Shown: piece by piece, positions 30,244-60,862 of the stretch | Layout: each line of letters begins with the position of its first letter | How positions within the stretch are numbered: position 1 is the first letter of the stretch | Assembly: GCA_963713145.1 (NCBI GenBank) | Contig: CAVQKI010000002.1 | Location: 119,278-183,277, forward strand | Length of the DNA: 64,000 bases | Direction: 5' to 3' | Source: an uncultured Thermoplasmata archaeon | Lineage (GTDB): Archaea; Thermoplasmatota; Thermoplasmata; Lutacidiplasmatales; UBA184 | Translations under genes and position numbers: made by a program | The notes under the pieces: generated by a model | The model's database searches: none | Seen by the model: only the letters and a program-made list of their open reading frames with translations | What the model was told of the DNA's origin: nothing

Positions 30244-30565
30244 GGCGGGCTCGGTTTCCGACCCGAAGATCTGTCTTGGGGCGACGAAGCGGAGAGAAAC
30301 TCCACCGATAGATATCAGCTCTCACTTCGTGTGGCCGTTCACCAGCCGGGGACACGGGGCGGGCTGGCTCCGAGGGAACGCCCGCGCACTGTCCCCACGT
30401 ATCACATAGCCCCGTGGCACGGTCCATCAAAGAGCACTCGCTGCGTTGTCTGGTTCGACCACAGGTGGGGGCGTAGAGAACCTGTCCCTTGACAGACCCG
30501 GGGCGTTGCTTCCGGGTCGAAGTCTGGACGCAACGGATTTGACTCTCGCACCCTACGGCGGTATC

Positions 30566-31822
30566 ATGGGGCGGAAGGCGGGCGCGCCCACCCGACCGTT
30601 GCGATCTTGTCCTCATTCCAAGGAAGTGAAGCGCGGGTACCTCGCCGCCGTAGTTAGCGGTCTTGTGATCGCTGTGGGGATCCTTTTGGGAGCGGCCCCC
30701 CAAGGTCCCCTCCTTGCCGGAGCTACCCCTCCCATCATCTTGCCGGCCAGCGAAGGGGTGATTTCGAGCATTCCGGTGGGCGTCGGCCCGTCGGGATTAG
30801 CCTACGACAGCGGGTTGGGAGAAATCTTCGTTGCGAACGTCCTTTCTCAGGATCTCAGCGTGATTTCGGATTCGACCAACACCGTCGACGCGACGATCGG
30901 GGCCCCGGGTGTCGATCCCGCCGTCGCGTACGACGACGGTTTGGGCGAGATCTTCGTCGCGGTCTCCAGCCTGAGCCTCGTTAGAGTCCTTTCGGATTCC
31001 AACAACTCTCTCGTGGCCACGATTCCCGTGGGCCTCGACCCGGCCGGTCTGGTGTACGACAGCACGATTGGAGCGGTCTTCGTGACGGACCTGGGGGAGA
31101 ACAATGTGAGCGTCATTTCGCACGCCCTCAACACCGTGGTGGTGACGATTCCGGTGGGCCAGACTCCTAGAGCTATCGCGTTCGACAGCGGCCGAGGTGA
31201 GATCTTCGTCGCCAACACGGTGTCAAGCAACGTGAGCGTCATCTCAGACGCCACCTTCTCGGTCGTGGCCACGATTCCGGTGGGCGGAGAGCCAACGGGT
31301 CTGGCATATGACGGTGGGAAAGGCGAGGTCTTTGTAACGGACCAGTCGGCGGGGGGGCAGGTTAGCGTAATCTCGGATTCTAACAACTCTGTTGTGGCTA
31401 CGGTCCCGGTGGGCGGTACACCCTGGGGTCTGGCGTACGATGGCGGACTGGGCGAGGTGTTCGTCACAAACGAAGGCTCGAACAACGTCAGCCTGATCTC
31501 GGACAGGACGAACGCTGTCGTGGCGACCATCCCGGTGGGCCATCAGCCCGAGGCCGTAGTCTACGACAGCGGGAAGGCTGAGGTTCTTGTCGCAAACGCC
31601 GGCTCGAACACGGTCGGCTTCCTCGCTAATGAATCCTCCTCACCAGGCGGCGGAAGCGCCCCCGGACTCGCAGGACCCGACGGCTATGCCATCGGGGGAG
31701 GCATCGGGGTCGCTGCCGGAGTGCTAGTCGGGATAGGAGTCGGGTCCAGGCTCAGACGGGGACCGAGATCCGGCAACGCGGGGATGGACCGGCCCTTGTC
31801 ACCACCCCCAGGTCCTTCGTGA
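30566..31822 (+). CDS. YVTN-family beta-propeller surface protein 1
   Basis: ATG 30566 gives an N-terminal anchor (YLAAVVSGLVIAVGILLGA). About 8 repeats of the type GxxPxGLAYDxxxGEVFVxNxxSNNVSVISDxxNxVVATIPVG follow, then a C-terminal TM helix and a basic/Pro tail. Confidence 0.8.
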   Translation: MGRKAGAPTRPLRSCPHSKEVKRGYLAAVVSGLVIAVGILLGAAPQGPLLAGATPPIILPASEGVISSIPVGVGPSGLAYDSGLGEIFVANVLSQDLSVISDSTNTVDATIGAPGVDPAVAYDDGLGEIFVAVSSLSLVRVLSDSNNSLVATIPVGLDPAGLVYDSTIGAVFVTDLGENNVSVISHALNTVVVTIPVGQTPRAIAFDSGRGEIFVANTVSSNVSVISDATFSVVATIPVGGEPTGLAYDGGKGEVFVTDQSAGGQVSVISDSNNSVVATVPVGGTPWGLAYDGGLGEVFVTNEGSNNVSLISDRTNAVVATIPVGHQPEAVVYDSGKAEVLVANAGSNTVGFLANESSSPGGGSAPGLAGPDGYAIGGGIGVAAGVLVGIGVGSRLRRGPRSGNAGMDRPLSPPPGPS

Positions 31823-34447: not shown

Positions 34448-34657
34448 AGGAGCCTCCCGGCACGGATGACTGGAGTCCCGTCGATCGCGATTTCGGAGCC
34501 GGCGAGCAATCCAGCGCCCCCTGGGCACCCCTGGCTGGGCGGACGAGATTGGAACGCCACGCCACAGAGCGCGGGGCCCCGCGAGGTGGCAAAGTGGATA
34601 TGGGAGGAGTTCATCGCTAGTACAAATCCGGTAGCCGCCGGAGGGCATCGAAGGAAA

Positions 34658-36058
34658 ATGCGGAGCGCAATCGGGGCCACGGTGTTGATCGTGATGGCGA
34701 CGTTGGCTCTCAGCGTCGCTTCGGCGCACGCGAACGGCCCGCTCCCGCTTCCAGTAACGGTGCCCGCCGTCGGTCCGCCCGAAACGTCGATTCCGGTAGG
34801 GACCAATCCGATCGCCGTGGCGTTTGATCCCGCCACCGGCTCCGTTTACGTTGCCAACGAGGGATCCGACAACGTGACCGTGATCAACCCGATAACGAAC
34901 ACGGTCGCTGTTGCGTCGATCGTTGTCGGCACGGGCCCCATAGGCCTTGCCTACGATCCTACCAACGGGTATGTCTACGTCGCCAATCACCTTTCGGGGA
35001 ACATAACGGCAATCAACGGAAGGACAAACAGCGTCGCCGTCCCATCCATCTCCGTCGGGGCCGACCCCTGGGGGATCGCATTCGACAGTTCCAACGGCTA
35101 TCTTTACGTGGCCAACGAAGGTTCGGACAACGTGACGGTGATCAATGGCGCGACAAACGCGGTCGTCGTCCCTTCGATCCCGGTAGGAACGGAGCCGATT
35201 GGCATGACGTTCGACAGTTCCAACGGCTACGTGTACGTGAACAACTTTGGGTCGGGCAATGTAACGGTGATCAACGGGGCCACCAACAGGGTGGTCGTCC
35301 CTTCGATCACCGTTGGGACCGAAGACCAGTTTGGCTCTCTCGACCCGGTGAACGACACGCTCTTCATGTCCAGCTACACGGGCAACAACGTCACGGTGAT
35401 CAGCGCTGCCACCAACAAGGTGGTCGTTTCTTCGATCGCCGCGGGCAGCGGCCCTCGAGCTCTCGGGTTCGATACCCTGAACGGGTACGAGTACGTGGCC
35501 GACTGGGCTGGGAGTACAGTCACGGTCATTAATGCCGCGACCGGCGAGGACGTAGGTGCCGCGATTCCCACCGGGACCTACCCGTTCGGGATTGCTGTCG
35601 ACACGACGAACGGTTACGTGTATGTGCCGAACCAAGACTCGGATAACGTCACTGTCATCGCCCCCAGCTACGTGATCGGAAGCGGGTCCTCCGGAGGATC
35701 GGGCTCTTCGGCGTCGATCCTTGGCCTGAGCGGCGCGGGGGCGGATGTGGTGGTGGCTCTGCTCGTTGTGTGGGGTGTCGGGGGCACGGTCGCCGCGGTC
35801 GTCCTTTCAAGGAAGCACCGCGCGCCCGGAGAGCTCCACCCGGCGAGCCCCCCACTCCCCCCACCCCACCCCCTGGTTCTACCTAGTAGAACTGGTCCGA
35901 GAACATTCCCGGTGGGCAAGGGATTGGGGAGGGTCACCCTTCGCGCGGAGCGCGAGCGGGCGAGTCCGGCCCAAGCCCGTGTATCTCCTGTAGCGGTCCT
36001 TGGTCCAGAACCAGACCGGTTCTGTAGGGTCTACCCCGACGGGTACTTCGAGGCGTAG
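34658..36058 (+). CDS. YVTN-family beta-propeller surface protein 2
   Basis: ATG 34658 gives the signal peptide MRSAIGATVLIVMATLALSVASAHA. About 9 YVTN repeats follow (GxxPxGxAFDxxNGYVYVANxGSDNVTVINGxTNxVVxxI), then a Gly/Ser linker, a TM helix and a Pro-rich tail. The last ~60 codons are low-confidence. Confidence 0.8.
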   Translation: MRSAIGATVLIVMATLALSVASAHANGPLPLPVTVPAVGPPETSIPVGTNPIAVAFDPATGSVYVANEGSDNVTVINPITNTVAVASIVVGTGPIGLAYDPTNGYVYVANHLSGNITAINGRTNSVAVPSISVGADPWGIAFDSSNGYLYVANEGSDNVTVINGATNAVVVPSIPVGTEPIGMTFDSSNGYVYVNNFGSGNVTVINGATNRVVVPSITVGTEDQFGSLDPVNDTLFMSSYTGNNVTVISAATNKVVVSSIAAGSGPRALGFDTLNGYEYVADWAGSTVTVINAATGEDVGAAIPTGTYPFGIAVDTTNGYVYVPNQDSDNVTVIAPSYVIGSGSSGGSGSSASILGLSGAGADVVVALLVVWGVGGTVAAVVLSRKHRAPGELHPASPPLPPPHPLVLPSRTGPRTFPVGKGLGRVTLRAERERASPAQARVSPVAVLGPEPDRFCRVYPDGYFEA

Positions 36059-38688: not shown

Positions 38689-39138
38689 GATAATAGCGCG
38701 GCCGCGCGAGGGACGTGCGGTCCCGTGGTGGCGGAGTACTACGTCCCGCTCCCGCACAGCGGAGAGCAATCCGATTGGTGCCTCGACCAACGCTGTGGAC
38801 AATCCCACTCTTTCGAGATCGGTGAACTGGGTCACAAAGGATCGCTCGGGTAGTCGGCTGAGCCCTTGGGTTTCGGACGGGTGAGTCATTCTTCTTGATT
38901 CTGGTGATGGAATTGGATCCGATTTCGGACCCAACTCCGTCTGGTCGATTGACACCGGTTCTCAGCGCCGACGAATGAGTAACTGCGAGGGAAAGACGAG
39001 AGCGCTTGGCCAGGGTTCGACCCCCTAGATGCCTAGCCCTAGGGGCTTAGCTCGGCCCAAACGGTTCCCGGGTTGGAATTCCAAGCCAATCTCCCTCGTA
39101 TGTACTTGGAAGGCATCCCTCCGTCGAGGACATTCAAT

Positions 39139-40275
39139 ATGCAACCTTCAGCCATCGAACGTCCCACCTCCTTCGGCAGACCCTTCCGTCTTGCGAAGCC
39201 CCGCTTCCTGCCCAGAACTCTGATAGGAGCCGCTTTGATTGTGGCGGTCGCTATGCTCTCAAACGCAGCGTCGGCTGCGCAAACTGTACCGAACCAAGTG
39301 TTCGGCCCTCCGCCGCTACCTACCGGTGACTACGTCGACCTAGAATGCGTCCACGGCGAGATTACGCTGAATGGAACAAAGGCTTGCCTCGACCAAACCA
39401 TCGTCCAGATTTATTGGGGTCCCGCTGACGGCCACACGTATTGGTATTGGGTAGCTGCTGAGCCGGACTCGGGCTATGTTTTCCACAACTGGTCTGTCCC
39501 AGCAGGCGTCTGTCTGCCGCCCCCTGGGAGCTGTCATGGAACCTCCACGGTCGATCCTGTGAACCTCTCATCGAGCTGCCCGAATGGTCAACACTGCGGC
39601 TCTGGCACTGTAGTAGTCACGTTCGTGACGATTCCCACCCCGAAGACCCAGTATAACTGGGCGGGCTACCTAATAACCGGTTCCACTGGTAGTTTCATAC
39701 AGGTCTCAGGATCGTGGATTCAACCTTCAGTTTCATGCAACGCAACAAATGCTGACGCCTCAACTTGGGCTGGAATCGACGGCTATGTGACGTCAGGAAC
39801 GGGACCGATCCCTGAGCAGGGCGGTACAACCGCATGGTGCATAAGTGGCGCGGCAAGCTACGTCGCATGGTACGAGGACCCCCTCACGTCTGGTTTTGTC
39901 AACATAACGGGGTCCGGTTACACCGTCAAGGCGGGCGACAGAATCACTGCGAACGTTACATACAGTCCGAGCACAGGTTACTTCGTGATTACGGTTATGG
40001 ATAAGAATCAGAGCTGGAGCTACTCGCCCACGGCTTTCACTGATTCGGGAGCGCTGGAGAATTCGGCGGAGTGTATCACCGAGCGGGTTCTGTTGCCAGG
40101 GGGACCACACGACTACGGCTATCTGGCTGACATGGGCACAGCGAAATTCGGCCTTCATTACTCAGGCACATTTGGATGCAGTGCGAACGGGACCACCTCG
40201 TGGGGACCTTTCGGCGGCTTCAGAACTCTTACCGAAGTTGAAATGGTGAGCTATCCCTCCGGTTCCTCCCCCTAG
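39139..40275 (+). CDS. Peptidase G1 (eqolisin/scytalidoglutamic peptidase family) with an N-terminal Cys-rich extension
   Basis: Signal/anchor LIGAALIVAVAMLSNAASA. The G1 core is YNWAGYLITG ... STWAGIDGY ... IPEQGGT (candidate catalytic Gln) ... YVAWYEDP ... AGDRITANV ... SAECITER (candidate catalytic Glu). The preceding ~110 aa contain AEPDSGYVFHNWSV (InlB-B-repeat-like). Confidence 0.8.
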   Translation: MQPSAIERPTSFGRPFRLAKPRFLPRTLIGAALIVAVAMLSNAASAAQTVPNQVFGPPPLPTGDYVDLECVHGEITLNGTKACLDQTIVQIYWGPADGHTYWYWVAAEPDSGYVFHNWSVPAGVCLPPPGSCHGTSTVDPVNLSSSCPNGQHCGSGTVVVTFVTIPTPKTQYNWAGYLITGSTGSFIQVSGSWIQPSVSCNATNADASTWAGIDGYVTSGTGPIPEQGGTTAWCISGAASYVAWYEDPLTSGFVNITGSGYTVKAGDRITANVTYSPSTGYFVITVMDKNQSWSYSPTAFTDSGALENSAECITERVLLPGGPHDYGYLADMGTAKFGLHYSGTFGCSANGTTSWGPFGGFRTLTEVEMVSYPSGSSP

Positions 40276-40713: not shown

Positions 40714-41352
40714 ATGGCCCCAGAAGTCGCCCTGAGACGAGTTAAGCGGAACGCGCGTGGCTGGAACCGGTCCGACCGACGGACCAGGGCGGCAATCGGG
40801 TTGGGGCATGTCGCCCTGATCCTCGGCGTCGTCGCGCTGGTCCTCGGCGGCACTGGCCTCGCGATCGCCCTCACGAACGGAGGCCATACCGGCTCTGCCG
40901 GAGCGCCGGGAGCCACCGGCGGCACTGGACCCGCCGGACCCGGAGCGGTGGTCAACCATACATACTTTGACTCAGGGCAGCTCCTGACGGCAGGCTGCGC
41001 ATTCTATTCCGGGGCAAACATCAGCCTGACGGCCGCAGGTCCCGGAACGTTCGTCGTGACGGCTTCCATAGAGCTCTTCATTACCCACACCTACGCGAAT
41101 TACTCCTCATACGCCGTGGGGCTCGCGAACGCTTCAGCGTCGTGCTCCTTCCTCATCGGTAGCTACGCTACTGGCTACATGTCGTCCGTAGCCCCTTCGG
41201 ACGGCTACTACGCTGACTATGCTCTGGGCGAGAACTTTGCGGCCGGAGCGGCCGGCACTTACACGTTCGGGATCATCGGCAGCGTCAGTTCGGGGGTGGA
41301 CCCGATTGAGTTCTACTGGTCCAGCGTCTCGGTGGAGTTCTACCCTGCGTAG
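40714..41352 (+). CDS. Type II membrane protein with a short collagen-like G-X-Y stretch and a ~130-aa C-terminal domain
   Basis: Basic N-terminus, a helix (AAIGLGHVALILGVVALVLGGTGLAIAL), then GHT GSA GAP GAT GGT GPA GPG (7 triplets), then a beta-rich domain ending TYTFGIIGSVSSGVDPIEFYWSSVSVEFYPA. Confidence 0.6.
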   Translation: MAPEVALRRVKRNARGWNRSDRRTRAAIGLGHVALILGVVALVLGGTGLAIALTNGGHTGSAGAPGATGGTGPAGPGAVVNHTYFDSGQLLTAGCAFYSGANISLTAAGPGTFVVTASIELFITHTYANYSSYAVGLANASASCSFLIGSYATGYMSSVAPSDGYYADYALGENFAAGAAGTYTFGIIGSVSSGVDPIEFYWSSVSVEFYPA

Positions 41353-41591: not shown

Positions 41592-41912
41592 GAACTCGAG
41601 CCGATCGAGGGTCCAACCCGTGTTGCACGCATCGCAGGACATCCGTCGTGTGAGATCCCTCTTCGCCCTTTCGCGCCGCGCGGTATCGGGCGGACACCCC
41701 AGGGCCCTCGGCCCACTCCGCCTCTTGAAACACGATTCGAGGGGCCGTTCGCAGGTTAGAGGCCATTCCGGCGGCGAGACGCGATCGGATCGTCAACCGG
41801 AGGCAGCGATTTCCAATTTCACGACCAAACATATTTCAAGGGGGTCCCGATGCATCCGGGTGCAGGCTGGAGTCCCCGAGGGAGTTTTCCGACCTGCGCA
41901 GTGAGACGACAG

Positions 41913-44900
41913 ATGACTCGGAAGGGAGTCGCCATAGCGATCGCCGTGATGACCGTGTTGAGCGGATTGACGCTCGTTGCAGTGGCGCCACGGGCGTCCG
42001 CGACCGTGGCGGCCGCCGGACCGTCGGCGGCGGTCCCATTGGGGCCGGATCTGGCCCCCGCGGTTGCCCCGCCAGACATGGGTTGGCAGACCCCGGCTCC
42101 GCTCGAGTCACAAACTACCGCGACCGCAAATCTCGCCGGGGTCGCGCTTTCGTCCGACGGCACCGGCATGATCGTTTGGCAGAAGAGCGGGGCCCGCAAC
42201 ACGCTGATGGCAACGCACTTCATCCCGAACGGAGGGGGGGATGGCGGCACGGATTGGCAGGTGCCCATGCAGGTCTCGAACAGCGTGAACGACATCGGTT
42301 ACACGTACAACGGTGCGGTGGCGATGGACGCGTCTGGCGATGCCATGGCGGTCTATTATTCCTGGAACGACACCCACGGCTACACCGCGTTCGCGGCTCT
42401 CTACAAGGCCGCCGTGGGCTGGCAGGCTCCCGTGGCAATCGACCAACCCTACGATTGGTCGTTCAACCCGGTCGTTTCGATGAACGCTGCTGGCAAGGCG
42501 GTCGCGGTCTGGGAAGTCTGGAACGGGGCGTACTATAGCATCTTCGCGAACCGGTTCATTCCCGGCACGGGTTGGGGCACAGCACAAGCGATCGAGTCGA
42601 CGGCGAATTACTCCGTCTCGCCCACCGTGGCGGTGGACGGAGCCGGGAATGCCATCGCCACCTGGTACGAGGAGGATGGCAGCACCTACCACGTCTACGC
42701 AGCCCAATTCAGCACCACCCTGGGCTGGCTCCCGCCTTTCAGCGTTGAAACGAGTGCCAACTGGGCCATCTACCCGTCCGTCGCGATGGACGCGGGGGGG
42801 AACGGAGTCGTGACCTGGATCGAGTACGACGGGCAGTACCGACGTGTGGGCGAAGCTGTACAACAGCACCTCCGGCTGGGCTCCCGCGACGATGATCGAG
42901 CCGGGCACCTACTATGCGGGGTACTATCCTGGCCCAGCCGCGGCCGAAGCTGGCGGAAACGCAAGCGTCGTCTGGACGATGCAGAATTCCACCGGAGCTT
43001 CGCAAATCTACGTGAACCGCTACGTTGCCGGCACGGGTTGGGTCGGAGCGCTCGACCTCGACATCTTTGGCCTTCCGTCGGAGGACGGTCTCGTGGCGAT
43101 GGACCCGACGGGCAACGTGACGATCACGTTCATCTATCTGCCCTCCACCAGTCCAGCGAACCAAGTAGTCGACGAGGCTGTTCGGTACAACCACGTGTCT
43201 AGCAGCTGGAGCTTCTCTCAACTCGACTACGGCCGGGTCGGGAGCGGTTCGCCGCTCGTGGCGATCGACGGAAAGGGGAACGCCATCGCGGCATGGAACT
43301 ACAACGCCGGAACGACGGTCACTCCCCAGAACGGGATCCTCTCGAACTACTACACCAACGGATCCGGGTGGCGGTACTACTGGCAGGCCCAGCAGGCCGA
43401 GTGGGAGAACGACATCTCTCCCAGTTGGCTCCAGCTCGAAACGAACGCGGCTGGAGACGCGATCTTCTCCTTCACGCAGAACGATGGCCCCATCTACGAC
43501 GGGTACGCCTCCATCTACACGCCGGGTGGCGGCTGGGGACCCGTCACTCGGATCGAGAACTTCAACTCGAGCGGCGTCACCGAAGAGTGGTCCGCGATGG
43601 ACGGGGCGGGCAACGCTCTGGTCCTCTTCCGTGCCTCCGACGGCACGCAGTTCAATGTCTACGCAACGTACTACTCGGTGAGCACCGGGTGGGGAACACC
43701 GCAACGGCTGGACACGGCAGCCGGGAGCAGCAAGGACTGGCTCCGGGTCGCCATGAACGACAAGGGCGAGGGGGTCGCGATCTGGAACGAGTACAACGGC
43801 ACGAACTACAACGACTACGCTGCGTTCTTCAACGGGACCACCCAAACGTGGGGGGCGCCCGCACCCGTCCAGTCAACGTTCATCTACCTCGGAACGGGCA
43901 CCATCGGCATCGACGGCCGGGGCGACGCGATGGCGGTGTACCAGGCCTACAACGGAACCGGCTATAGCAACTATGCGAGCTACTACCAGCCGGGCCTCGG
44001 CTGGGGCTCACCGGTCCAGATCGCTCGGAACCCGATGGGATCGAACCCTACCTACGCGGTCGAAATGAACGATGCGGGCTACGCGGCCGTAAGCTGGACC
44101 GATTGGAACGGAACCGCCTACCTAGCCGTCGTGAACGTATTCTCACCGACGACCGGCTGGGGGACGGACACGGTCTTTAACACCGGAGCGGGCGACGAAG
44201 GACCCGCCACGCCTTCCCTGGACGGCGCCGGCGATGCTCTGCTCGCCTACGACGTCTGGAACGGGACCCAGTTCACCGCCTACGCCGTCCTGAAGCCCGC
44301 CGGTGGGGCCTGGGGCACGCCTGCCCTGCTGAGTTCGGGCTCGGGTGACGCAACCGAACTGGTATCGGCGCTCGACTACCGTGGGGACGGCTTCGTAGCT
44401 TGGACCCAGTTCAACGGGGTCGGGTACAACATCCTGGCCCGGGAGTACGTGAGCGGCCAGGGGTGGTTGCCACAAGCCACGGTCAACCTACCCGTGCCGG
44501 CCACGCCCGCGACGGACACCGGGAGCGCGGTCCTAGGGATGGACGGTCATGGGGACGCGGTCCTCGGCTGGAACGAGTGGGAGAACGGAGCGCTGCTGCC
44601 GTTCGCCGCGACCTACATCGCTGGCAACGGCCTGCCGACGCTGGCGCTCTCTTCCCCGATCGACGGGACTCTCACGAACGACTCCTCGGGGATCGTCTCG
44701 GGCTCCACCGACCCTGGCGCGACCGTGACGATCGACGGATCGCCCGTCGCCGTCGCCGTGAACGGCTCGTTCAGCGAGTCGGTACTCCCTGCCGGACGGT
44801 TCGCACACCTTCGTGGTCGTCGCGAAGAACGCGGCCGGGCTCACGACCCAACAGACGAGCACGGTTACCGTCATTACGACAGGCCCGTCGCTTACCCTCT

Positions 44901-46801
44901 CCACTCCCACGACGGGGAGCCTGACGAGGGACCCCGTCGCCCAGGTCAACGGCACGACCAAAGTCGGCGCGACGGTCTCTGTGAACGGGGTCCAGGCCCT
45001 CGTATCGGGCACGGGCACTTTCAGCGTCGCGTTGCCGCTCCAGGAAGGGCTGAACACCATCACCGCGATCGCAAAGGACGGCGCGGGGAACACCGCGACG
45101 GACTCGGTCACGGTCACCCTCGATACTATCCCACCCAGCCTGACCGTCACCTCTCCAACGGCGGGGCTGACTAACCACACCGCAGTCGTCGTTTCCGGTT
45201 CGACGGATCCCGGGGTGACGTTGACGGTCGATGGAACCCCCGTGACCGTTGGGATCTCCGGTGCATTCACCACGACTCTGACGCTGCCGAACGGTCCGCA
45301 TACGATCGTCGTGAACGCGACGGACGCGGCGGGGAACCTGGCATCGGATTCGGTCCTCGTCACGGTGGACACCACACCGCCCAGCCTGGCGATCGCGAGC
45401 CCCGTTACCGGTAGCCTCACGAACAACCCGGTCGCCGAGGTCAGCGGAACCACCGACCCCGGGGCCAGCGTGGCCGTCAACGGGGTCCAGGCCGCCGTCT
45501 CGCCCTCGGGCAACTTCAGCGTCCCCCTACCGCTCCAGGAAGGCTCCAACACGATCACCGCGATCGCAACGAATGCCGCGGGGAACACGGCGACGACATC
45601 GGTGACCATCACCCTCGATACCGCTCCCCCCGCCCTGACCCTCACGTCTCCGACCGCGGGGCTCACGAACCACACGGCGGTCGTCGTTTCGGGGACGACC
45701 CAGCCAGGCGCCGCGGTGACGGTAGACGGCACCCCGGTGACCGTGGGAATCTCCGGGGCGTTCACGACCACCCTGACACTCGCCAACGGCGCGCACACCA
45801 TCGTGGTGATCGCGACGGACGCTGTAGGCAATCAGGCGACCGTTTCGGTGATCGTCACGGTGGACACGACCCCTCCGAGCCTGGCGATCTCGAGCCCTGT
45901 TACCGGTAGCCTCACCAGGGACCCTGTCGCCCAGATCAACGGGACCACCGACCCCGGCGCGACCGTCTCCGTGAACGGCGTGCAGGCGGCGGTCTCCGGC
46001 ACGGGCGCGTTCAGCGTTTCGCTGCCGCTCGAGGAAGGCGCGAACACGATCACCGCGACCGCGACCAACGCCGCTGGGAACACCGCTACGACCTCGGTGA
46101 CGGTCAGCCTCGATACCGTGCCCCCGGCCTTGACCTTGACCTCCCCGACGACGAGCCTTACGAACCATTCGGCGGTCGTCGTTTCGGGGACCACGGAACC
46201 CGGCGCCACGGTCACGGTCAACGGGACCGCGGTGAGCGTGGGGGTTTCCGGTGCGTTCACCACGACACTGACACTGGCGAACGGCCCACACACGATCGTC
46301 GTGAACGCGACGGATGCGCTCGGCAATCGGGCCACCCTCTCCCTGCTGGTAACGGTCGATACTACCCCACCGGCCCTCGCGATAACGTCGCCCACGACCG
46401 GGGCCAGCGTCTCAACGTCCACCGTCCTCGTGACGGGCACGGCGGAGGCCGGTTCGACGGTGGTGGTCGATGGCTACGCGGTGGCGTTGAGCAGTGGCGG
46501 GACGTACTCGATCGAGCTGCCTCTCGCCCCGGGCTCCAACACGATCACCGTGACGGCGACCGACGCCGCGGGCAACGCGGCGACTCGGTCCGTCGTCGTG
46601 TCGTACGACGTTCCGGCGCCGGCCGCCCAATCGTCCTCCAGCTCGCTGAGCACCCTGGACTACGTGCTGATCGGTGTAGCGGCAGCCGCGCTCGCTATCA
46701 GCCTCGTTCAGGCTGCCCGCGGCCGCAAGCCGAAGGCGGGGCCCACCGAGGAGTGGAAGGAACAGCCTCCCGCACACCCTCCGGAGCAGCCTCAACCCTA
46801 G
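41913..46801 (+). pseudogene. Giant (~1,630 aa) surface protein: 16 Trp-rich repeats plus 8 Ig-like modules plus a C-terminal anchor; two frame changes
   Basis: ORFs 41850..43202, 42844..45174 and 44813..46801 continue each other's repeat patterns. The first junction is VTWIEYDGQY / VWAKLYNSTSGW at ~42840. The second is NGSFSESV / SLPDGSHTFVVVAKNAAG at ~44785. ATG 41913 gives the signal/anchor MTRKGVAIAIAVMTVLSGLTLVAVAPRASA. Confidence 0.7.
44632..46609 (+). repeat. Coding tandem array of eight ~82-aa Ig-like modules (order A0-B1-A1-B2-A2-B3-A3-C)
   Basis: Type A: DTxPPxLTxTSPTAGLTNHTAVVVSGxTxPGxxVTVDGTPVTVGISGAFTTTLTLxNGxHTIVVxATDAxGN. Type B: DTTPPSLAIxSPVTGSLTxxPVAxxxGTTDPGAxVxVNGVQAAVSxxGxFSVxLPLxEGxNTITAxATNAAGNTAT. 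Module starts, calculated from the translation: 44632, 44876, 45122, 45368, 45617, 45863, 46112, 46358. Confidence 0.8.
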
Positions 46802-47128: not shown

Positions 47129-48027
47129 TTACACGGGCGACTTCGACCGGCCCTTCAACGCTACCGCGGCCAACGCCGCAACACCGGCGGCCACAACAGC
47201 TCCCACGACGACCCAGTCGAGGGGAGAGAGAGGCGTTCCGCCGGAGGTGGCCGAGCCCGAAGCGACGATCGTGTCGTCAACGAGGGTGACATCGCCGGTC
47301 CGCGCGGGCGCTTGCCCGTTCAGGTGAGCGCCGGTGTCCAACGTCACGGATGCATACGCCATGATCGTGCGACCATGGTTGCGGTCGTGCCGATGGTCGC
47401 CGAGCTCCCGACCTGCCAGTAGACGTTGGACGCCTGGGCGCCGCCCGAGAGGACAACACCAGCATCCGACGTGACGGTCAGTCCCGACGCGACCTGGAAG
47501 ATGAAGACCCCTGGCCCGGTGAGCGTGACGGTGCCCGACGAGATCTCCAACGTGGAGGTGGACTTGTACAGTCCCGCGGTCAAGGTCATGCCCTGGAGGT
47601 TCCCGGCTACGGAGATGGGGCAGTTGGAGCGCCCCGCGGCATCGTTGTAGGCCGTGGTCAGGGCTGCCTCGGCGCCCGTGTGCACGATGCCCTTGGTCCC
47701 TGTCTACTTCCCGGGAGGGAAGCCGACTATGGCCGATCCGGGCCCGACTCCGATGTTCCCCGTAATGACGGGTCCGGTGTTGGTAGGGGTCGTGCCCGAT
47801 AGGATGGCATAGCCCGACGCCTGGCCGAGAGCCACGGATGTCTGACCGCAGGCAACGGCCGGCGCGGCGCTCGTGGGGGCGCTGGTCGCGAGGGTGGACG
47901 TTCCGGCGGAGGCGGAGGCACCGTGCGTTGACTGGGCAACCGCCGAGATCGCCACGAACATGGTCGCAAACGTGACGACCACGGCCACGACGATGCTCGC
48001 TGCTCGCTTTTGCTTGAATGCCATCAT
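47129..48027 (-). pseudogene. DUF3494 (ice-binding-like) surface protein with an in-frame TAG and one frame change
   Basis: ORF 47704..48027 has the signal sequence plus GYAILSGTTPTNTGPVITGNIGVGPGSAIVGFPPGK. ORF 47344..47685 is in the same frame after TAG 47704-47706 (TGTKGIVHTGAEAALTTAYNDAAG ... NVYWQVGSSATIG). The last part (GRTIMAYASVTLDTGAHLNGQA...TGDVTLVDDTIV, TM anchor WVVVGAVVAAGVAALAAVAL) is in the frame of ORF 47129..48103. The junction is at ~47375. Confidence 0.75.
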
Positions 48028-49032: not shown

Positions 49033-49278
49033 CCTGAGGGACCGTGACCGATCCCCGGGCTCACGCAGAGACGGCGGCTCAGTTAACCACATCGGGACGG
49101 AGCCCGGTCCCGCCGCGCATCCGGATTGGTCAGTTCAATGCCAGTTGAACCCAGTTGGGCTTGTGACGCCGGTGAGGGAGGCACTTCGAGTTCCGACTGA
49201 GTGCCCCAAGGAGCCCGCGTGCGGGTTGCCGCCCGTCTAGGCCAAGACTCTTCGACGCTTCCGATTCGGGAGGCCCCG

Positions 49279-52033
49279 ATGTCTCTACGTGGATCGAGGA
49301 GGTCGATTGTGGCCCTCGGGCTGCTTCTTGCGTTGGTCATCGGCAGCCTTAGTGTTCCTCTTCTCTCCCAAACCACGGTCCTTCACGCGGGCCTCTCGCC
49401 CGTGACCGCGCCCGCGAAGGCGGGGTCCGGGGGAAGACTGGAGTACCTGCCGACGACGTCCGCTGGGGCGCAGCCCGCCGATCCTCCCTCAATCCGATCG
49501 AACGCGATCGCCTTCCGCTCGCCGGATCCCTTCGGTGTCGTGGGGACAGTGCCCACGGGGGGCGCCACCGGAGTCGCCTACGACCCCGGGCGAGGGGAAG
49601 TATTCGTCGCAAACGGCGGGTGCAACTACCCCCCGTTCGAGGGAGGCCTGAGCGTTATCAACGATACCTCGCAGAAAGTGGTGGCGACGGTACACACCGG
49701 GTGCAATGCAGAGCAGGTCGTTTACGATTCCAAGAAGGGAGAAGTGTTCACGACGAACTACTCGAAACTGGTCGGCGTGTCCGATTCCAACAACTCCGTC
49801 GTGGCGACGATCTCGGATCCAGACGGAGCGGTAGGACTGGCGTACGACTCGGGTAAAGGGGAGCTCTTCGTGACGGGGTTCGGGTCCAACGTGACCGTCG
49901 TCTCGGACTCGAGCGATTCGATCGTAGCCGAAATCCCGGCTGGCGCGACCTACAGCAATCTGAACGGTAGCACTCCCGCCTACGACGCAACTCTAGGGGA
50001 GGTGTTCGGTACCGGACTGGACCGCTGGGAGCGTCAGCGTGATCTCGGATTCGACGGACCGAGTCGTGACGACCATCCCCGTCCATGGTTACCCCAACAG
50101 CGCGGTCTGGGACCCCGCGAAGGCGGAGGTTTTCGTAGCCGACGGCTTCGCGGGCAACGTTAGCATCATCTCGACAGCCACGAACGCCGTTGTGGCGACC
50201 GTCCCGATCGGCCCCTTCCCGGTCACTCCGTTCGGGCTTGCCTACGACCCTACGCGCGGAGAGGTCTTCGTCGGAGACTCGTCGAACGGCTTCGGCGGGT
50301 TTAACAACGTCACGGCCATCTCCGACGAGAGCGACACCGTCGTCGGGAGTTGGGTGATCGGGGCGAACCCGATGTCGATTGCCTACGACTCGGGGACTAA
50401 CCAAGTTTACGTCGCCGACAGCTGGGCGGGAAACGTTTCGATCCTGGCCAACGGCTACAGCGCAACGTTTTCCGAGAGTGGCCTCGCCGCCGGCGTCTAC
50501 TGGACCATCGAGATGGACGGCCAGACCCTGAGCACGGCGAGCTCGTCCGTCACCTTCGTGACCGCGAATGGGACCCACGCGTTCGCCGTCGGACGGGGAA
50601 TCGGGTACAATGCGACCCCCAAAGCCGGCAACATCACCGTTAGCGGGAGCGGAGTCTCCACGGAGATCAGCTTTGTCCTCGCGGTTTACGTTATTATTTT
50701 TCAAGAATCGGGATTACCGGCCGGGACCAACTGGTCGGTCAATCTATCGGGATCGTTGCACACGTCGATCGGCGGGTCCATCACATTCGAGAGGTCAAAC
50801 GGTTCGTATCTCTTCGCCGCAAACACATCTCTCCTCAACTTCACGCTGGCGCCGCCTTCGGGTGGGGTGACTGTGACCAGCAACCCGCAGACGATCAATC
50901 TCACGGCAATCCGAAGTTACGCCGTGAACTTCACGGAAAGCGGCCTTGCCCCCGGTTCGGAATGGTCGGTCACGCTGGGCGGAACGCCTCGGGGGTCGCT
51001 TGGCTCCACGATCGGCTTTGCGGAACAGAACGGCACGTACGCGTTTTCGGTGGCCCCGATCGCTGGTTACGTTTGGACTCCCGCCGCGGGGAACGTCACT
51101 GTCCACGGCGGGCCCGACGCGGTCTCCCTCCTCCTCGCGGCGACGTACTCCGTCTCGTTCAATGAATCCGGACTGCCGGCCGGGACCCCCTGGACCGTAA
51201 CGTTGGGCGGACTCCACAATTCTTCGACCGGATCGTCGATGCCCTTTGTGGAGGTGAACGGCACCTACGCGTTCGCGGTGGCGCCGATAGGAGGCTATAT
51301 CGCGTCGTCGTGGTCCGGAAACCTAAGCGTCAACGGTTCGGCGGTCACCCAGAACCTAACGTTCCAGGTAGCCACCTACACGGTCACGTTCAATCAGAGC
51401 GGCCTACCGATCCACTCGAACTGGTCGGTGACGTTGAACGGACTGTCAAAGTACTCCCTCGGGCAGTCCATTTCCTTCGTTCTACCCAACGGATCGTACC
51501 AGTTCTCCCTCTTTTTTGCAGGACCCTACGAGCTCTACCCCGGATCATCCGACCTGCTTGTTTACGGGGCACCGGTCTCGATACCGGTCTTCGCGGAGCT
51601 CGTCAGCTTTGTCGTCTTCACCGAGTCCGGACTCCCTTCGCCGGGGGATGCCAACTGGTCCGTTAGCATCAACGGCCAAGTGTTGAATTATCCAGGACCA
51701 GAGCAGGTCATCCGGGAGCCGAACGGAACGTACTGGTTCACCGTTTCGGGAAGCGAGGGGTACACGGCGACCCCGTCGTCGGGGTTCCTGACCGTCGATG
51801 GCTTCGAATTGTTCCTCGCGGTCAATTTCACTGCTCCTCAGCCGTCGGCCGCTGCGCCGCCCGGAGAGGGCCTCCTGGGAATGCCTGGATACGGCGGCCT
51901 CTTCCTAATCGTGTGGAGCGTGTCGTTCTCAGTCCTCCTCGTGGTCCTTGTCGCCTGGCGAACGCGGACGCCACCGCCCCAGGGTTACCTGGCCGGCCCC
52001 CCTTCGGCACCACGGTATCCTCCTCGAGCCTGA
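49279..52033 (+). pseudogene. YVTN beta-propeller surface protein 3 fused to seven ~85-aa FxESGLPxGxxW repeats; one frame change
   Basis: ATG 49279 gives MSLRGSRRSIVALGLLLALVIGSLSV. YVTN repeats continue across ORFs 49201..50163 and 50039..52033 (junction LGEVFGTG / AGSVSVISDSTDRVV at ~50015-50030). From ~50456 there are seven repeats such as YVIIFQESGLPAGTNWSVNLSG...NGSYLF, then a TM helix and a Pro-rich tail. Confidence 0.75.
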
Positions 52034-56444: not shown

Positions 56445-57122
56445 ATGGCCCTCGCCGCGGGCTTCGCGGCGGGCCTGGTCTATCTCGTCCTGCTCGTCGC
56501 CGACTACAACGCGATGACCGCGTTCGCCTGGTCGGTCACCTCACTGTCCCTGATCCTCTCCGTCGTGGGCGCGTTCGCCCTGTCGACCATGCTCGGATCG
56601 GACATCTCGAACTACCAGCGCCTCGAGCTCGACCTGGCCCGGACCGCGCTCGCATACGTCGGGTCCGGTTCCGCGCCCACGCCTGAGAGCCCCCTCGCAG
56701 GAGTTTGGAGGGCGTACGTCGGCGCCTCCGAGGAGTCCCGCCGGGTCGCTCGGGCGCACGCGTATGGCCTGGGGCTGTTCATCCGAGCGGGCATGATCTC
56801 CCTCGCGGCGGTGCTGCTGGCCGCCCTGGGGTTCCTTACTTCCACGCAGAACGTGCTTGGCCTGGCCATGCTCGTGGAGCTGTTCGCCTTCTTCTTCCTG
56901 ATCGTGGGCGCGGGTGCGCTGGTCGCGACCGTCGGCTTTTCCGCGCCGGTGCCGGGATACGAGATGTTCGCGGCCCGACGCTGGAAGCGCAATTCCGGTC
57001 GGGCCGAGGCGGTGCGAACGTCGTTCGCGGACATCCCGTGGCTCGCGGAGTTCGTCCGCGGGGCCGGGGAGAGCCACCTCGACCCGACGGGCCCCTCCGT
57101 TCTGCCGAGCTGGCGCGAGTAA
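56445..57122 (+). CDS. Polytopic membrane protein, unknown function
   Basis: From internal ATG 56445 of ORF 56232..57122, with four to five helices (LAAGFAAGLVYLVLLV, LILSVVGAFALSTML, MISLAAVLLAALGFL, LVELFAFFFLIVGAGALVA). Confidence 0.5.
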   Translation: MALAAGFAAGLVYLVLLVADYNAMTAFAWSVTSLSLILSVVGAFALSTMLGSDISNYQRLELDLARTALAYVGSGSAPTPESPLAGVWRAYVGASEESRRVARAHAYGLGLFIRAGMISLAAVLLAALGFLTSTQNVLGLAMLVELFAFFFLIVGAGALVATVGFSAPVPGYEMFAARRWKRNSGRAEAVRTSFADIPWLAEFVRGAGESHLDPTGPSVLPSWRE

Positions 57123-57253
57123 GCTGGCACCGACGGAACTCGCCCGGGGCTTCTCCCGCCCTAGGCGTCCTCAGTCCAGCGCGGAGACCCGGCGAGGAGA
57201 ATCGAGACAAACGACTAAGAGGGGGTCCTCGGGGTACCAAGTCCCGGGCCACC

Positions 57254-60200
57254 GTGACGCGGAACCTACTTTCGTTGGGCGCGATCGTCGTCGTAGCGAT
57301 TTTCCTCCTGACCACCACCGCTGTGCCGGCGGGTGCCCATCCTGTGGGCGCCCTTAGTTCGGGAGACCACAGTCCAGGCCTGCCGCTCTCTGCAGCCGCC
57401 GCGCCCACAGCGCCTAGAGCCCCGGCCACAGACGCGGTCCAGAAGAGCCAGGCAGCCGAGAGGGCCACGGAAGCCCAGAAGGTTCCCACGGGACTGTACC
57501 ATCCCCCCGATTTCTCCGCGGAAGGGGTGCGTCCCCGCGGACCCGTCGCCCCAACCTATACGGCGGCCCCGGCACCGATGGGCGTCGCGGACCTGGGGCT
57601 GAGGAACTCCGCCGGGACCCTGGTGCCCTACATCCTCAACTCTACCAGCGTGGAGGGGACGATCTCGCTGACCTCGGCCCAATCGGCGTACGTTGACGGG
57701 GACGGACCGGATACCTTCGGAATCCAGCTGAACGCCGTCGCGACGAACGTGACCCTGTTCGGCAACTCGAGCTACGAATTCTGGACCCAGGACTTCGTGA
57801 GCTACACGTCGAGCTCGGGTCAGCTCACCTTCGGCGATAACGTCTGGAACTTCTCGGACCTGGCGGGCCTGTTCCCCTCGAACGCGATCTACTCGCACGG
57901 CGCGAACGGCACTCTGGTCGCGCCGGAGGACTACTACGCGAGCGGCCCGGCCTTCACGGTTCGCTACCCGTTCACCGTCACATTCTTCCTCAACGCGACG
58001 ACCGTGGCGGACCGTCCGGCGATCTACTTCAACTACTCGTTGACCTCCCCGTCCGTTACGAGCCACGCCGGGTCGTTTGACTTCGTGGTGTTCAATTCGA
58101 CCGCTACGACGCCCCTCGACCCGGCCGCGGTGCCCATGTTCCAGGTGAACGGGGCGTCCTACGACCCTACCGGACTCCTGAACGACGTCGAGCTCGTCGT
58201 GGTGGGCAACGGAGGCGGGGACACGACCACGTTCTTCTTGATGAAGGCGACGCTGACCATCGAATTTTGGAACGAATCGGGTGGCGGTTACCAGCGGTTT
58301 CCCTCGGCCTACGATGCGGGCTCCGATACCGGAGAAACCAGCGATGGGATTGACGTCTCGTTCAACGCATCCATCCTCGGCAATCCGATCCCGATCGCGA
58401 ACCTCGACCTCGGACCGTCGTTCCTCTACGGCCTCTGGAACGCCTCCACGAATCCGGGCTCTCGGATCCTCAGCCTAACCCAATCCCCCGCGAACGCGTT
58501 CCTTTTCGTGAACTCGGGAGCCACGTTCAAGCCTCTGGACGCCCAATGGGTCCCGACCGCCCTGCTCGCGACCGCCGGAGCGATGTCCGTGTACTTCCCG
58601 AACAAGGGCACGTACTTCTTCGAGTGGCTTCTGAGCGATTACCGTTCTACCGGAAAGGCGTTCACCGTCCTGCAGGCTCCTAACAACCTCACCACCGCGG
58701 TGAGCACGACGCTCGTCTCGGCCACCGGCCAGGGGGTCTATACCCCGCTCCTCGCCTGGGGCAACGCCGAGCTTGGTGCGATCGTCTCGTCCGGGAACGG
58801 GACCAACGCGAGCCCGTACAACCTGGAGAACGCCGCTCCATCCCAGCTCGGAGCGGAGTTCACCCAATGGAACGATTTCGAGTTCCCGGTCTTTCCGGGG
58901 GTCCTCCTGATCGGGACGACCGACTGGGTCCGCGCCACTCCGGCCGGATTCGCGATCACCTACCCCGCCGTCGTGGCTCCGACGCTGGCCTCCCTAGGCC
59001 TCCCCTCTTCGAACCACCTCCAGCTGGAGTTCTGGGGAGTCTCGAACCTCAGTCTTTCGAATGCCCCTCTGATCACGGGCTGGATCTCCTCGAACTTCGG
59101 CGGGTACCCCGCGGCCGCCGCGACGTTCTGGGACTCCAGTAACAACCTCATCTCCGGCAACACCTTCCTGGACCAGGGGGCTTCGCTCGCTCTCTACGGA
59201 GGGACGAACAACACCGTATGGGGGAACTCGTTCCTGCCCACCCCCGTGGCGGCCTCGAACCAGACCGCGATCCAGGACTCCGGGAACAATACGACCGGGA
59301 TCCTTGAATCGGAGTCCGGCGACCTCGTCTTCAACAACTACTTCACCGTCCCCCAGACCGCCTACACCCCGACCATCGACCCGTTCTCCTGCCAGTACAT
59401 CTGCACCGCCGTTGCCTACTCGGACCGCTGGAACGTCAGCCTGGAGCCCGCCAACGACACCCAGACGGTCCTGGGCCGCGTGTTGACGGGGAGCATCATC
59501 CTCACGTCGTACCAGGGCGGCAACTACTGGTCGAACTACGGAACGACCTCGGACCCTTACGGGATCCTGCCGTACAACGATGCCGGCCGGATCTCGAACG
59601 GGGGCGACTACTACCCCCTCATCCCGTTCTCGCTCTACTCGGTCACGTTCAGCGAGACGGGCCTCGCGCTCGGGGCCGCGGACTGGGGCGTGTCGGCCGT
59701 CGGGCTGAACCAGTCCGCGGCGCCCGGCGCGACCATCACCGTGTTCGCCCCGAACGGCACGTACAACTTCTCGGTGGTCATTCCGGCCGGTTACACGGTC
59801 ACGGCTCCCGCCAACTTCACGGTCGAGGGGGCCAACGTTTCGGTCGACCTCACGTTCTTGCCACTGCTACCGCTCGAATTCATCGAGACGGGCCTCGCTG
59901 AGAGCTGGAGCTGGACAGTCAACCTGACGCCGCTAGCCCTTGGACAGTCGAACGTAACGGGAACCTCGACCAACGGAACGGAGACGTTCGCGCTCGTCGC
60001 GGGGTCGTATCTCTACAACATCACGTCCACGGGGTACAACGCAACCCCCGCCACGGGGACCGTTCTGGTGGCGAGCGGGATCCCTGCGATCGACGTTGCG
60101 TTCTCGCTGGTACCGATCCTCGAAGTCAACGAGACCGGCCTGCCGGCGGGCGTTGCATGGACCGCGGCCATTCACGATGGTTCGAGCTGGTCGAACAAGA

Positions 60201-60862
60201 CGTCCGTTGGGACCCAGATCAACTTCTTCATCTTCGACCTCGCCCCCGGTGCCTACACCTGGCATATCTCGGCGACGAACTACACCGCAACGCACCGCTT
60301 CGGCCACGGGACCTCCCCGACCCCGACCTGGGTCTCGACCACCTTCTCGATCCTGCTGGGCACGCTCGCCGGCTCCGTCAACGCGCCTTCCGCGACCTTG
60401 ACGATCGACGGGAACTCGGTCCCGGTCACCAACGGGACGTTCTCGGTCCAGCTTGGCGCCGGCGTGCACGCGATCTTTGTGACCGCGGCGGGCTACGAGC
60501 CGTACTACAACAACGTGACCGTCGTTGGCGGCACCACGACCAACTTCACGATCCAGATGAACGCCGCGCCCGGTCCGTTGCCGGGGTTCCTCGGCATTCC
60601 GCTGTTCGGGTGGGCGCTCATCGCTGCGCTCGCGCTGGTCGCGCTGATCCTGCTCGTGGTCGCGTTGACCCTCCGACGCCGGGGCGGTACCCCTCCGCCC
60701 GTGGCCGCCTTCAAATCGGTCCGGCCGGCCGCCCCGGTCTCTGCCGCCGCAGCTCCGGCAGCCGCCCCGCCCGCCCCGAAACCCTCCGCGCCGGCAGCGC
60801 CCCCGGCCCCCCCCGCGTGGAGCGAGGACTCCTCCGAGGCCCCGTGGAGCGAGGGCAACTAG
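57254..60862 (+). CDS. Thermopsin (peptidase A5) fused to a beta-helix region, three FxETGL repeats and a C-terminal anchor
   Basis: GTG 57254 gives VTRNLLSLGAIVVVAIFLLTTTAVPAGA. The A5 hallmarks are APAPMGVADLGL, FGIQLNAV, YEFWTQDFVSY and FGDNVWNFS. A mid-region has NLISGNTF / NNTVWGNSF beta-helix-like turns. From 59636 come YSVTFSETGLALGAADWGV, LEFIETGLAESWSWTV and LEVNETGLPAGVAWTA. The gene ends with LPGFLGIPLFGWALIAALALVALILLVVAL-RRRGG and an Ala/Pro tail. The frame is intact over 3.6 kb. Confidence 0.85.
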   Translation: MTRNLLSLGAIVVVAIFLLTTTAVPAGAHPVGALSSGDHSPGLPLSAAAAPTAPRAPATDAVQKSQAAERATEAQKVPTGLYHPPDFSAEGVRPRGPVAPTYTAAPAPMGVADLGLRNSAGTLVPYILNSTSVEGTISLTSAQSAYVDGDGPDTFGIQLNAVATNVTLFGNSSYEFWTQDFVSYTSSSGQLTFGDNVWNFSDLAGLFPSNAIYSHGANGTLVAPEDYYASGPAFTVRYPFTVTFFLNATTVADRPAIYFNYSLTSPSVTSHAGSFDFVVFNSTATTPLDPAAVPMFQVNGASYDPTGLLNDVELVVVGNGGGDTTTFFLMKATLTIEFWNESGGGYQRFPSAYDAGSDTGETSDGIDVSFNASILGNPIPIANLDLGPSFLYGLWNASTNPGSRILSLTQSPANAFLFVNSGATFKPLDAQWVPTALLATAGAMSVYFPNKGTYFFEWLLSDYRSTGKAFTVLQAPNNLTTAVSTTLVSATGQGVYTPLLAWGNAELGAIVSSGNGTNASPYNLENAAPSQLGAEFTQWNDFEFPVFPGVLLIGTTDWVRATPAGFAITYPAVVAPTLASLGLPSSNHLQLEFWGVSNLSLSNAPLITGWISSNFGGYPAAAATFWDSSNNLISGNTFLDQGASLALYGGTNNTVWGNSFLPTPVAASNQTAIQDSGNNTTGILESESGDLVFNNYFTVPQTAYTPTIDPFSCQYICTAVAYSDRWNVSLEPANDTQTVLGRVLTGSIILTSYQGGNYWSNYGTTSDPYGILPYNDAGRISNGGDYYPLIPFSLYSVTFSETGLALGAADWGVSAVGLNQSAAPGATITVFAPNGTYNFSVVIPAGYTVTAPANFTVEGANVSVDLTFLPLLPLEFIETGLAESWSWTVNLTPLALGQSNVTGTSTNGTETFALVAGSYLYNITSTGYNATPATGTVLVASGIPAIDVAFSLVPILEVNETGLPAGVAWTAAIHDGSSWSNKTSVGTQINFFIFDLAPGAYTWHISATNYTATHRFGHGTSPTPTWVSTTFSILLGTLAGSVNAPSATLTIDGNSVPVTNGTFSVQLGAGVHAIFVTAAGYEPYYNNVTVVGGTTTNFTIQMNAAPGPLPGFLGIPLFGWALIAALALVALILLVVALTLRRRGGTPPPVAAFKSVRPAAPVSAAAAPAAAPPAPKPSAPAAPPAPPAWSEDSSEAPWSEGN

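Follow-up and report, generated by a model that had tools for sequence, protein, structure and literature searches.

Several families of proteins have a bearing on the one described here. Its best structural counterparts are the PLL-family lectins (PLL, PHL, PLL2-5 and CV39L; PDB 6gxs, 8q81 and 5c9o), which are soluble and seven-bladed. The nearest named sequence family is NCBIfam NF053835, “PDIAV motif-containing lipoprotein,” an equivalog model of 458 amino acids (aa), and the only Pfam family with repeated matches inside the repeats of its relatives is BNR_4 (PF15892), which we take to be a member of the sialidase clan covering the PL42 and GH145 propeller enzymes; these enzymes are presumably seven-bladed. 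We analyzed a stretch of 64,000 nucleotides (hereafter, the window) from contig CAVQKI010000002.1 of an uncultured Thermoplasmata archaeon (assembly GCA_963713145.1), which encodes on its forward strand a large protein with 16 Trp-rich repeats. We think it probable that positions 41913–46801 are one intact gene for a 1628-aa type-I membrane-anchored surface protein, in which two predicted eight-bladed β-propellers would act as a non-enzymatic binding head.

The repeat region spans 42072–44631, where 44631 belongs to its last residue, and Trp accounts for 4.6% of it. An earlier sequence-only reading of this DNA had described, for 41913–44631, 16 repeats with a period of 50–57 aa. All of the GW/DW/SW/TW/AW motifs that it quoted were located at residues 78–871 of the joined product, 50–57 aa apart, and alignment of the 16 units with MAFFT gave the consensus G.GW..P....[8-10]..VAMD..G.A...W...NGT.Y....A..Y with a mean pairwise identity of 25%. 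A hidden Markov model (HMM) was then built from 609 units taken exclusively from the proteins of other organisms, which makes the search non-circular. This independent HMM recovered all 16 units in the window protein (355.8 bits in total, with unit scores of 4.3–61.4), and the best score among 200 shuffles of the repeat region was 6.7 bits. Because a model made from other proteins finds 16 of 16 units and shuffled sequence reaches at most 6.7 bits, the repeat is real and lies far beyond chance. A six-frame search of the whole window found the unit nowhere outside the repeat gene, the neighboring YVTN-type genes included.

The gene is spread over three overlapping open reading frames (ORFs) on the plus strand: ORF 1 (41850–43202, frame 0), ORF 2 (42844–45174, frame 1), which overlaps ORF 1, and ORF 3 (44813–46801, frame 2), which overlaps ORF 2. 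We joined them by translating all frames across both overlaps and dropping a single base at each of 42840 and 44785. These two single-base corrections yielded a continuous 1649-aa product with zero internal stops, so the three ORFs can be joined as proposed earlier; the corrected junctions read …WIEYDGQY/DVWAKLY… (42840) and …SFSESV/SLPDGSHTF… (44785). By direct reading of the sequence, the probable true start is Met22 of the longest ORF, and it begins a signal peptide, MTRKGVAIAIAVMTVLSGLTLVAVAPRASA, that is followed by TV (41913..42005, +). Starting at Met22 (41913) places the first GW at residue 57, as is the case in several orthologues, and the signal peptide is of the AxA type, without a lipobox Cys. 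GW units 1–8 make up predicted propeller 1 (joined residues 75–502; 42072..43356, +), which is delimited by the unit alignment, the independent HMM and AlphaFold2 (AF2) and contains the first frameshift. GW units 9–16 make up predicted propeller 2 (joined residues 503–927; 43357..44631, +), which is delimited by an AF2 model of the module and by Foldseek. Residues 928–1597 (44632..46642, +) were assigned by Pfam to eight Ig-like domains of the Glucodextran_B / Big_13 / Big_6 type. Glucodextran_B (PF09136) matched this stalk in 8 stretches with 364.1 bits (E 2.7e-111; threshold of 27 bits passed), and Big_13 and Big_6 also matched residues 928–1597. The C-terminus (46655..46801, +), again read directly from the sequence, holds a transmembrane helix, LDYVLIGVAAAALAISLVQAA, after which come the basic stretch RGRKPK, a short tail rich in Pro and Glu, and the stop codon. 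The domain order is signal peptide, 16 repeats, Ig-like stalk and membrane anchor, an arrangement characteristic of displayed surface proteins; it bears out the description of a giant surface protein.

We predicted the structure of the repeats in two AF2 models, both of them confident. The first (m32b956396d1c) was computed for the repeat region (852 aa) from an alignment of 37 sequences and was all-β, with a mean predicted local distance difference test score (pLDDT) of 88.5 and a predicted template modeling score (pTM) of 0.76. The second (m14d2a419d991) covered units 9–16 (window 43339–44646) with 117 sequences, and reached a pLDDT of 90.1 and a pTM of 0.86. In this second model there are eight repeats, each composed of one short split strand, which is the GW segment, and then three long strands; these are best described as eight predicted four-stranded blades. 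The full model has 16 such strand repeats. Unit counts in 341 homologues also came in eights, with 8 units in 241 proteins and 16 units in 68. The remainder mostly had 7, 15 or other intermediate counts, which probably reflect a weak unit that was missed or a partial protein. Since homologues have 8 or 16 units, the module appears to be eight blades, of which the window protein carries two. Two eight-bladed propellers are the best-supported reading of the models. A β-propeller consists of four-stranded blades in a closed ring; the blades are predicted directly, and closure of the ring is suggested by the pTM of 0.86 together with the counts of 8 and 16.

When both models were compared with the PDB by Foldseek, the good matches, including every match listed with probability 1.00, were exclusively to β-propellers. 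For units 9–16, the best single-domain match was the lectin CV39L (6gxs), with a TM-score relative to the query (TMq) of at most 0.60, a TM-score relative to the target (TMt) of at most 0.71 and 14–15% identity. PLL and PHL were among the top matches of the full model, and across both models the PLL-family lectins matched best (E 1e-10 to 1e-12, TMt 0.63–0.71, TMq ≤0.60, 11–15% identity). Next came CylK, PL42 (7esk/7esl), GH145 (5mul/5mvh), the PL24 lyase 6byt and many sialidases; the enzyme-type matches (PL42, GH145, PL24 and sialidases) had E values of about 1e-8 and TMq of 0.4–0.54, with the PL42 and GH145 structures at 0.48–0.54. We assume that these enzymes are 6- or 7-bladed. Among viral predicted structures the matches were likewise propellers, with TMq of at most 0.61. 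A ceiling of TMq near 0.6 is expected if the best solved matches, which are shorter (about 340–365 aa against ~425 aa per module), have fewer blades. The sequence-only reading had proposed that the unit is blade-sized and that 16 units could form two eight-bladed propellers, and had set an AlphaFold and Foldseek check beforehand. The models agree with it on each point: a repeated blade-like fold with four-stranded blades is predicted, and the good matches are all propellers.

Sequence searches place the repeat in a large family of eight-blade modules that occurs in bacteria and archaea and is unmodeled in Pfam. An exhaustive phmmer search of 1.84 billion cluster representatives (50% identity) returned 5,513 at E≤1e-3, of which 2,813 lay at E≤1e-10; a further homologue search gave 3,764 proteins at E≤1e-10, and phmmer and hmmsearch matches to family members ranged in E value between about 1e-50 and 0. 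The family consensus unit is PGTGWGTATLIETDAGDAASPQVAMDAAGNAIAVWQQSDGTRYNIWANRYV. An eight-unit module consists of consecutive units of ~52 aa with the consensus GxGWGxAxxIE-x8-PQVAxDxxGNAxAVWxQxDGxxxxIWANRY, and the window protein conforms to this definition. Intact single-ORF orthologues with the same architecture were 38–74% identical, and those with a named source all come from Thermoplasmata; a contig search with the window protein led to one Thermoplasmata metagenome-assembled genome. Homologues were also present in Methanomassiliicoccales and other Thermoplasmatota. Clear homologues at 26–36% identity were found across many bacteria, named examples being from Desulfuromonadaceae, Geobacteraceae, Nitrospirae, Burkholderiales, Marinobacter, Cupriavidus, Noviherbaspirillum, Saccharospirillum and Thiohalorhabdus. 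The suggestion that the repeat is a distinct invention within this locus does not hold, as numerous bacteria and further archaea have it too.

Most bacterial members are 450–650 aa long, often with a lipobox, a single Ig-like domain (Big_5, DUF7151, PKD or others) and one eight-unit module; a lipobox-like motif was found in 103 of the 248 homologues with 7 or 8 detected units. Their annotations mirror the Ig-like domain alone, as “Ig-like domain-containing protein,” “DUF7151 family protein” or “hypothetical protein.” Blades within one protein are 47–83% identical in bacterial members and ~24% identical in the archaeal proteins. In the bacterial proteins P0030, P0032, P0127, P0260, P0261 and P0282, the median within-protein blade identity was 0.65–0.83. 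This contrast would fit recent or concerted amplification in bacteria as opposed to an old, differentiated 16-blade array in archaea. Some carriers of the module are giants (P0130, 7019 aa; P0144, 3677 aa; P0155, 3415 aa), which indicates that multidomain surface proteins of very large size make use of the module as well.

Named repeat families were not recovered in the window protein itself. An hmmscan of its 927-aa N-terminal part against Pfam-A gave 0 families at E≤1, with WD40, Kelch, PQQ, NHL, BNR, YVTN-type, SBBP and FG-GAP/VCBS included in the scan, and an NCBIfam scan of the protein likewise gave 0 matches at E≤1. A regular-expression search of residues 75–927 found neither a strict nor a relaxed Asp-box (S-x-D-x-G-x-T-W), nor DxDxDG, YVTN or WD motifs, and BNR (PF02012) was unmatched. 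YVTN/YncE, NHL, WD40, Kelch, PQQ and SBBP are propeller repeats with four-stranded blades like the unit described here, but their profiles do not match the window protein, and SBBP is marginal in a few relatives. Profiles built from three alignments (A1; A2, with 117 members; and A3, with 51 bacterial members, which was also scanned against Pfam and NCBIfam) found zero relatives of the repeat among all PDB sequences. PDB-sequence matches of the Ig-like part to fatty-acid-binding proteins (E about 0.5–0.9) were set aside as chance. Pfam matches of the family consensus to TruB_C, Prok-E2_C, DUF4227 and Tir_receptor_M were rejected as short-motif artifacts, and those of Hia_Tpr_ring_dom to P0032 (E 1e-25, summed over 15-aa pieces) and of Mtf2_C to P0030 as coincidences multiplied by repetition. 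The TruB_C match scores 33.6 bits, above its 28.7-bit cut-off, and such likely false positives appear in the precomputed annotations of members.

The bacterial relatives come closer to two named families. NF053835 matched 44 of the 51 at E≤1e-3 (best 1.8e-20), all under its 90-bit cut-off, and the consensus of bacterial 8-unit relatives matched it in 7 stretches with 70.3 bits (E 2e-19), again below the cut-off. NF053835 takes its name from the motif PDIAV, whose counterpart in the repeat is P(Q)IAVD, where strand B begins; the window protein has P.VAMD there. The length of the model suits an 8-unit module. The window protein differs: it is unmatched by NF053835 at E≤1, lacks a lipobox, and has a signal peptide with a C-terminal transmembrane helix, two modules and an eight-domain stalk. 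A full-text literature search for PDIAV returned nothing relevant, and one on eight-bladed propeller lipoproteins returned background papers alone. BNR_4 matched 17 of the 51 bacterial homologues at E≤0.01, and its cut-off of 27.3 bits was passed by P0043 (34.7 bits) and P0112 (29.1 bits); other weak Pfam matches in these homologues were to BNR_2 and GH43. The window protein is unmatched by BNR_4 at E≤1 and is unlike it in having eight regular 52-aa blades per module, without an Asp-box and without conserved catalytic-type residues. Thus, the earlier statement that the consensus is not YVTN, WD40, Kelch, BNR, PQQ or NHL agrees with zero Pfam and NCBIfam matches and with the missing diagnostic motifs, whereas the broader one, that the repeat can be assigned to no family, is correct for Pfam and needs qualifying for bacterial relatives, which match NF053835 below threshold and BNR_4 at the borderline. 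The family looks like an unmodeled branch near the PDIAV lipoproteins, and it may be distantly tied to sialidase-like propellers, though without their defining motif.

The two frame changes noted earlier are present in the sequence, but both are most likely assembly errors. The first is one extra base beside a GTAC site, CAGTAC[C]GACGTG (42840, +). Skipping it restores …WIEYDGQYDVWAKLY… and brings the length to that of the orthologue consensus DGxYNVWA. The second is one extra G at a GTAC site, TCG[G]TAC (44781..44785, +), and a second assembly lacks this G. L001, a contig of that assembly (ENA ERZ25039509 contig_75589), shares 99.7% identity with the window across 9.6 kb and differs from it by 7 indels, among them those at window 42828, 42839, 42843, 44781, 49024 and 49445. 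Six of the seven lie within 4 nt of GTAC, against only 3.4% of positions (binomial P about 1e-8, or 6e-6 when clustered indels are counted conservatively). Its 1302-aa protein P0122 reads through the second junction as SESYSLPDG. The frameshifts therefore look artifactual, because the indels cluster at GTAC and the second junction is in frame in L001. Insertions private to each assembly lie within 16 nt at the first junction, and their removal gives an identical in-frame sequence, from which we infer an intact gene there. The GTAC pattern suggests that base-calling goes wrong systematically at one particular motif, which may be methylated, and it does not resemble gene decay or programmed frameshifting. 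As a separate observation, GTAC-linked errors in long reads would point to methylated GTAC and, by extension, to a GTAC methyltransferase active in this archaeon.

It would follow from taking both +1 changes as real that the gene is a true pseudogene, or depends on programmed frameshifting, and that the fragments alone are made. This assembly does have two frame changes, the public gene calls on the source contig are the fragments P0012 (659 aa) and P0121 (528 aa), and the second assembly is also out of frame at the first junction. However, the second frameshift is missing from a 99.7%-identical contig, the first-junction insertions are private to each assembly and leave one in-frame sequence of orthologue length when removed, and 6 of 7 indels sit at GTAC, resembling systematic base-calling error. 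Moreover, 1649 codons run without an in-frame stop after two 1-nt corrections, and each orthologue recovered by a full-length match consists of one ORF. We consider a pseudogene or frameshift-dependent gene highly unlikely; programmed frameshifting in particular was rejected, given that the other assembly has no frame change at the second junction and that the indels follow GTAC sites.

For an intact gene, we propose the following model. In each unit, strand A would carry the GW, strand B would be P.VAMD, a tight D..GN turn would lead into strand C (A.AVW), and a (D/N)G turn into strand D (Y.VYA..Y), so that one unit forms one four-stranded blade. After the signal peptide, the 16 blades would close into two eight-bladed β-propellers; the eight Ig-like domains would be a stalk that holds the propellers off the membrane, and the single C-terminal helix would anchor the protein. 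The propellers would most likely bind as an adhesin-like or lectin-like head without enzymatic activity, and the long, variable, aromatic-rich A-B loops are the candidate contact surface. In 29 archaeal sequences, 130 columns were conserved in at least 27, and almost all of these are G, W, D, A, Y, P or N at repeat positions. The 130 columns contain zero His, Cys or Lys, with 2 Glu and 4 Arg, and the few conserved charged residues are E530, E578, R445, R619, R632 and R864. Since the conserved columns are repeat-structural and without His, Cys or Lys, a scaffold or binding module is favored over an enzyme. A non-enzymatic binding head is favored in turn because the pattern of conservation and blade identity is accompanied by a display architecture and lectin-like structural matches. 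We speculate, tentatively, that the GW/P.IAVD blade defines a large, undescribed superfamily of eight-bladed propellers that are multivalent carbohydrate-binding heads, a new class of lectin or carbohydrate-binding module carried on lipoproteins and on the surface stalks of archaea, in which three conserved Trp of the consensus blade would line the sugar pockets; this is possible, but we would not call it likely.

A number of points weigh against a binding head on an intact gene. The gene neighborhoods of three bacterial homologues (Marinobacter, Noviherbaspirillum and Thiohalorhabdus) had nothing in common that would hint at a function. The blade count is drawn from the DSSP pattern, the unit counts of homologues and the pTM, and the best structural matches stay at TMq ~0.6, without a close template for a specific binding mode. 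The weak links in sequence and fold lead to enzyme families (BNR_4, sialidases and PL42/GH145), and the region of the first junction is broken in both assemblies, by different indels.

Two other roles were weighed against the binding head. The serious alternative, which we regard as doubtful, is a ligand-free structural role in the envelope, where the propellers would pack laterally over an Ig-like spacer as an S-layer-like coat or glycocalyx scaffold. Such a role would suit the layout of transmembrane anchor, long Ig-like stalk and large globular head, the many other anchored surface proteins encoded nearby, and the age of the 16-blade array, in which blades are ~24% identical within the protein while the repeat region is 38–74% identical between orthologues. 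Yet nothing points to abundance or lattice formation, and the module also sits on small bacterial lipoproteins that have just one Ig-like domain and would be unlikely to form a lattice. N-glycosylation sequons number 24 against ~18 expected, an unclear and unconvincing enrichment. It is improbable, in our view, that the propellers are catalytic, as a distant branch of the sialidase, BNR_4 (PL42, GH145) or PL24-type enzymes acting on extracellular polysaccharide. The BNR_4 matches in bacterial homologues (17 of 51, two above cut-off), the weak matches to BNR_2 and GH43, and the Foldseek matches to PL42, GH145, PL24 and sialidases would all be consistent with catalysis. The enzymes listed superpose moderately (TMq 0.4–0.54), however, and the window protein itself has no BNR_4, BNR_2 or GH43 match at E≤1. 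Its repeat-structural conserved columns are devoid of His, Cys and Lys and also of a blade-specific acidic cluster, and in bacterial members, blades that are 47–83% identical make an asymmetric active site impossible, a pattern typical of multivalent binding propellers. A non-enzymatic binding head is therefore the role that we prefer.

The genes around this one encode mostly secreted or surface proteins, including YncE-like propellers, a peptidase A4, a thermopsin and an ice-binding-like protein. An island of exported proteins occupies 30446–31822, 34466–36058, 39073–40275 and 56705–60862; it contains two seven-bladed propeller proteins of the YncE/lactonase type, both anchored C-terminally, together with a homologue of peptidase A4 (G1) and a thermopsin-domain protein of more than 1100 aa with PEGA/CarboxypepD_reg domains, and it resembles a toolkit of surface proteins and extracellular proteases. 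Just upstream of the repeat gene, a 212-aa ORF (40714–41352, +) has an N-terminal transmembrane segment and a short collagen-like, Gly-rich stretch, GSAGAPGATGGTGPAGPG; its remaining domain is without a Pfam match, and the ORF lies upstream of the repeat gene in the second assembly too. The gene for the ice-binding-like surface protein (DUF3494, PF11999, E 2e-31; 47344–48027, − strand) appears to be split into ORFs 47344–47685 and 47704–48027. Two genes are called in the other assembly as well, and the gene is probably frameshifted or mis-assembled. The overlapping ORFs 49201–50163 and 50039–52033 (+), with YVTN/NHL-like repeats, look like one frame-split surface-protein gene, near which two GTAC-site indels, at 49024 and 49445, separate the assemblies. 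The frameshifts serve as a caution that GTAC-linked errors split several genes in this assembly.

Compared with described systems, the fold is familiar and the family is undescribed: it comprises ~5,500 clusters at 50% identity, without a Pfam model and without a solved structure matched by sequence. It is a useful target for curation and structural genomics; it is not a new kind of biology, and specialists would not find it surprising. A definition of the family would lead to better annotation of lipoproteins and surface proteins, both in many bacteria and in the poorly known Thermoplasmata, and would also clear spurious short-motif Pfam matches. Within the family, bacterial propellers with closely similar blades (47–83%) contrast naturally with a diverged archaeal double propeller (~24%). 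Among known propellers, the PLL-family lectins, whose PDB entries are lectin-sugar complexes, for example with α-methyl-fucoside, are a plausible functional analogue. They are shorter, at ~340–365 aa against ~425 aa for each module of the window protein, and the three profile searches of PDB sequences gave no match to them; and unlike these lectins, the window module sits in a membrane-anchored multidomain protein.

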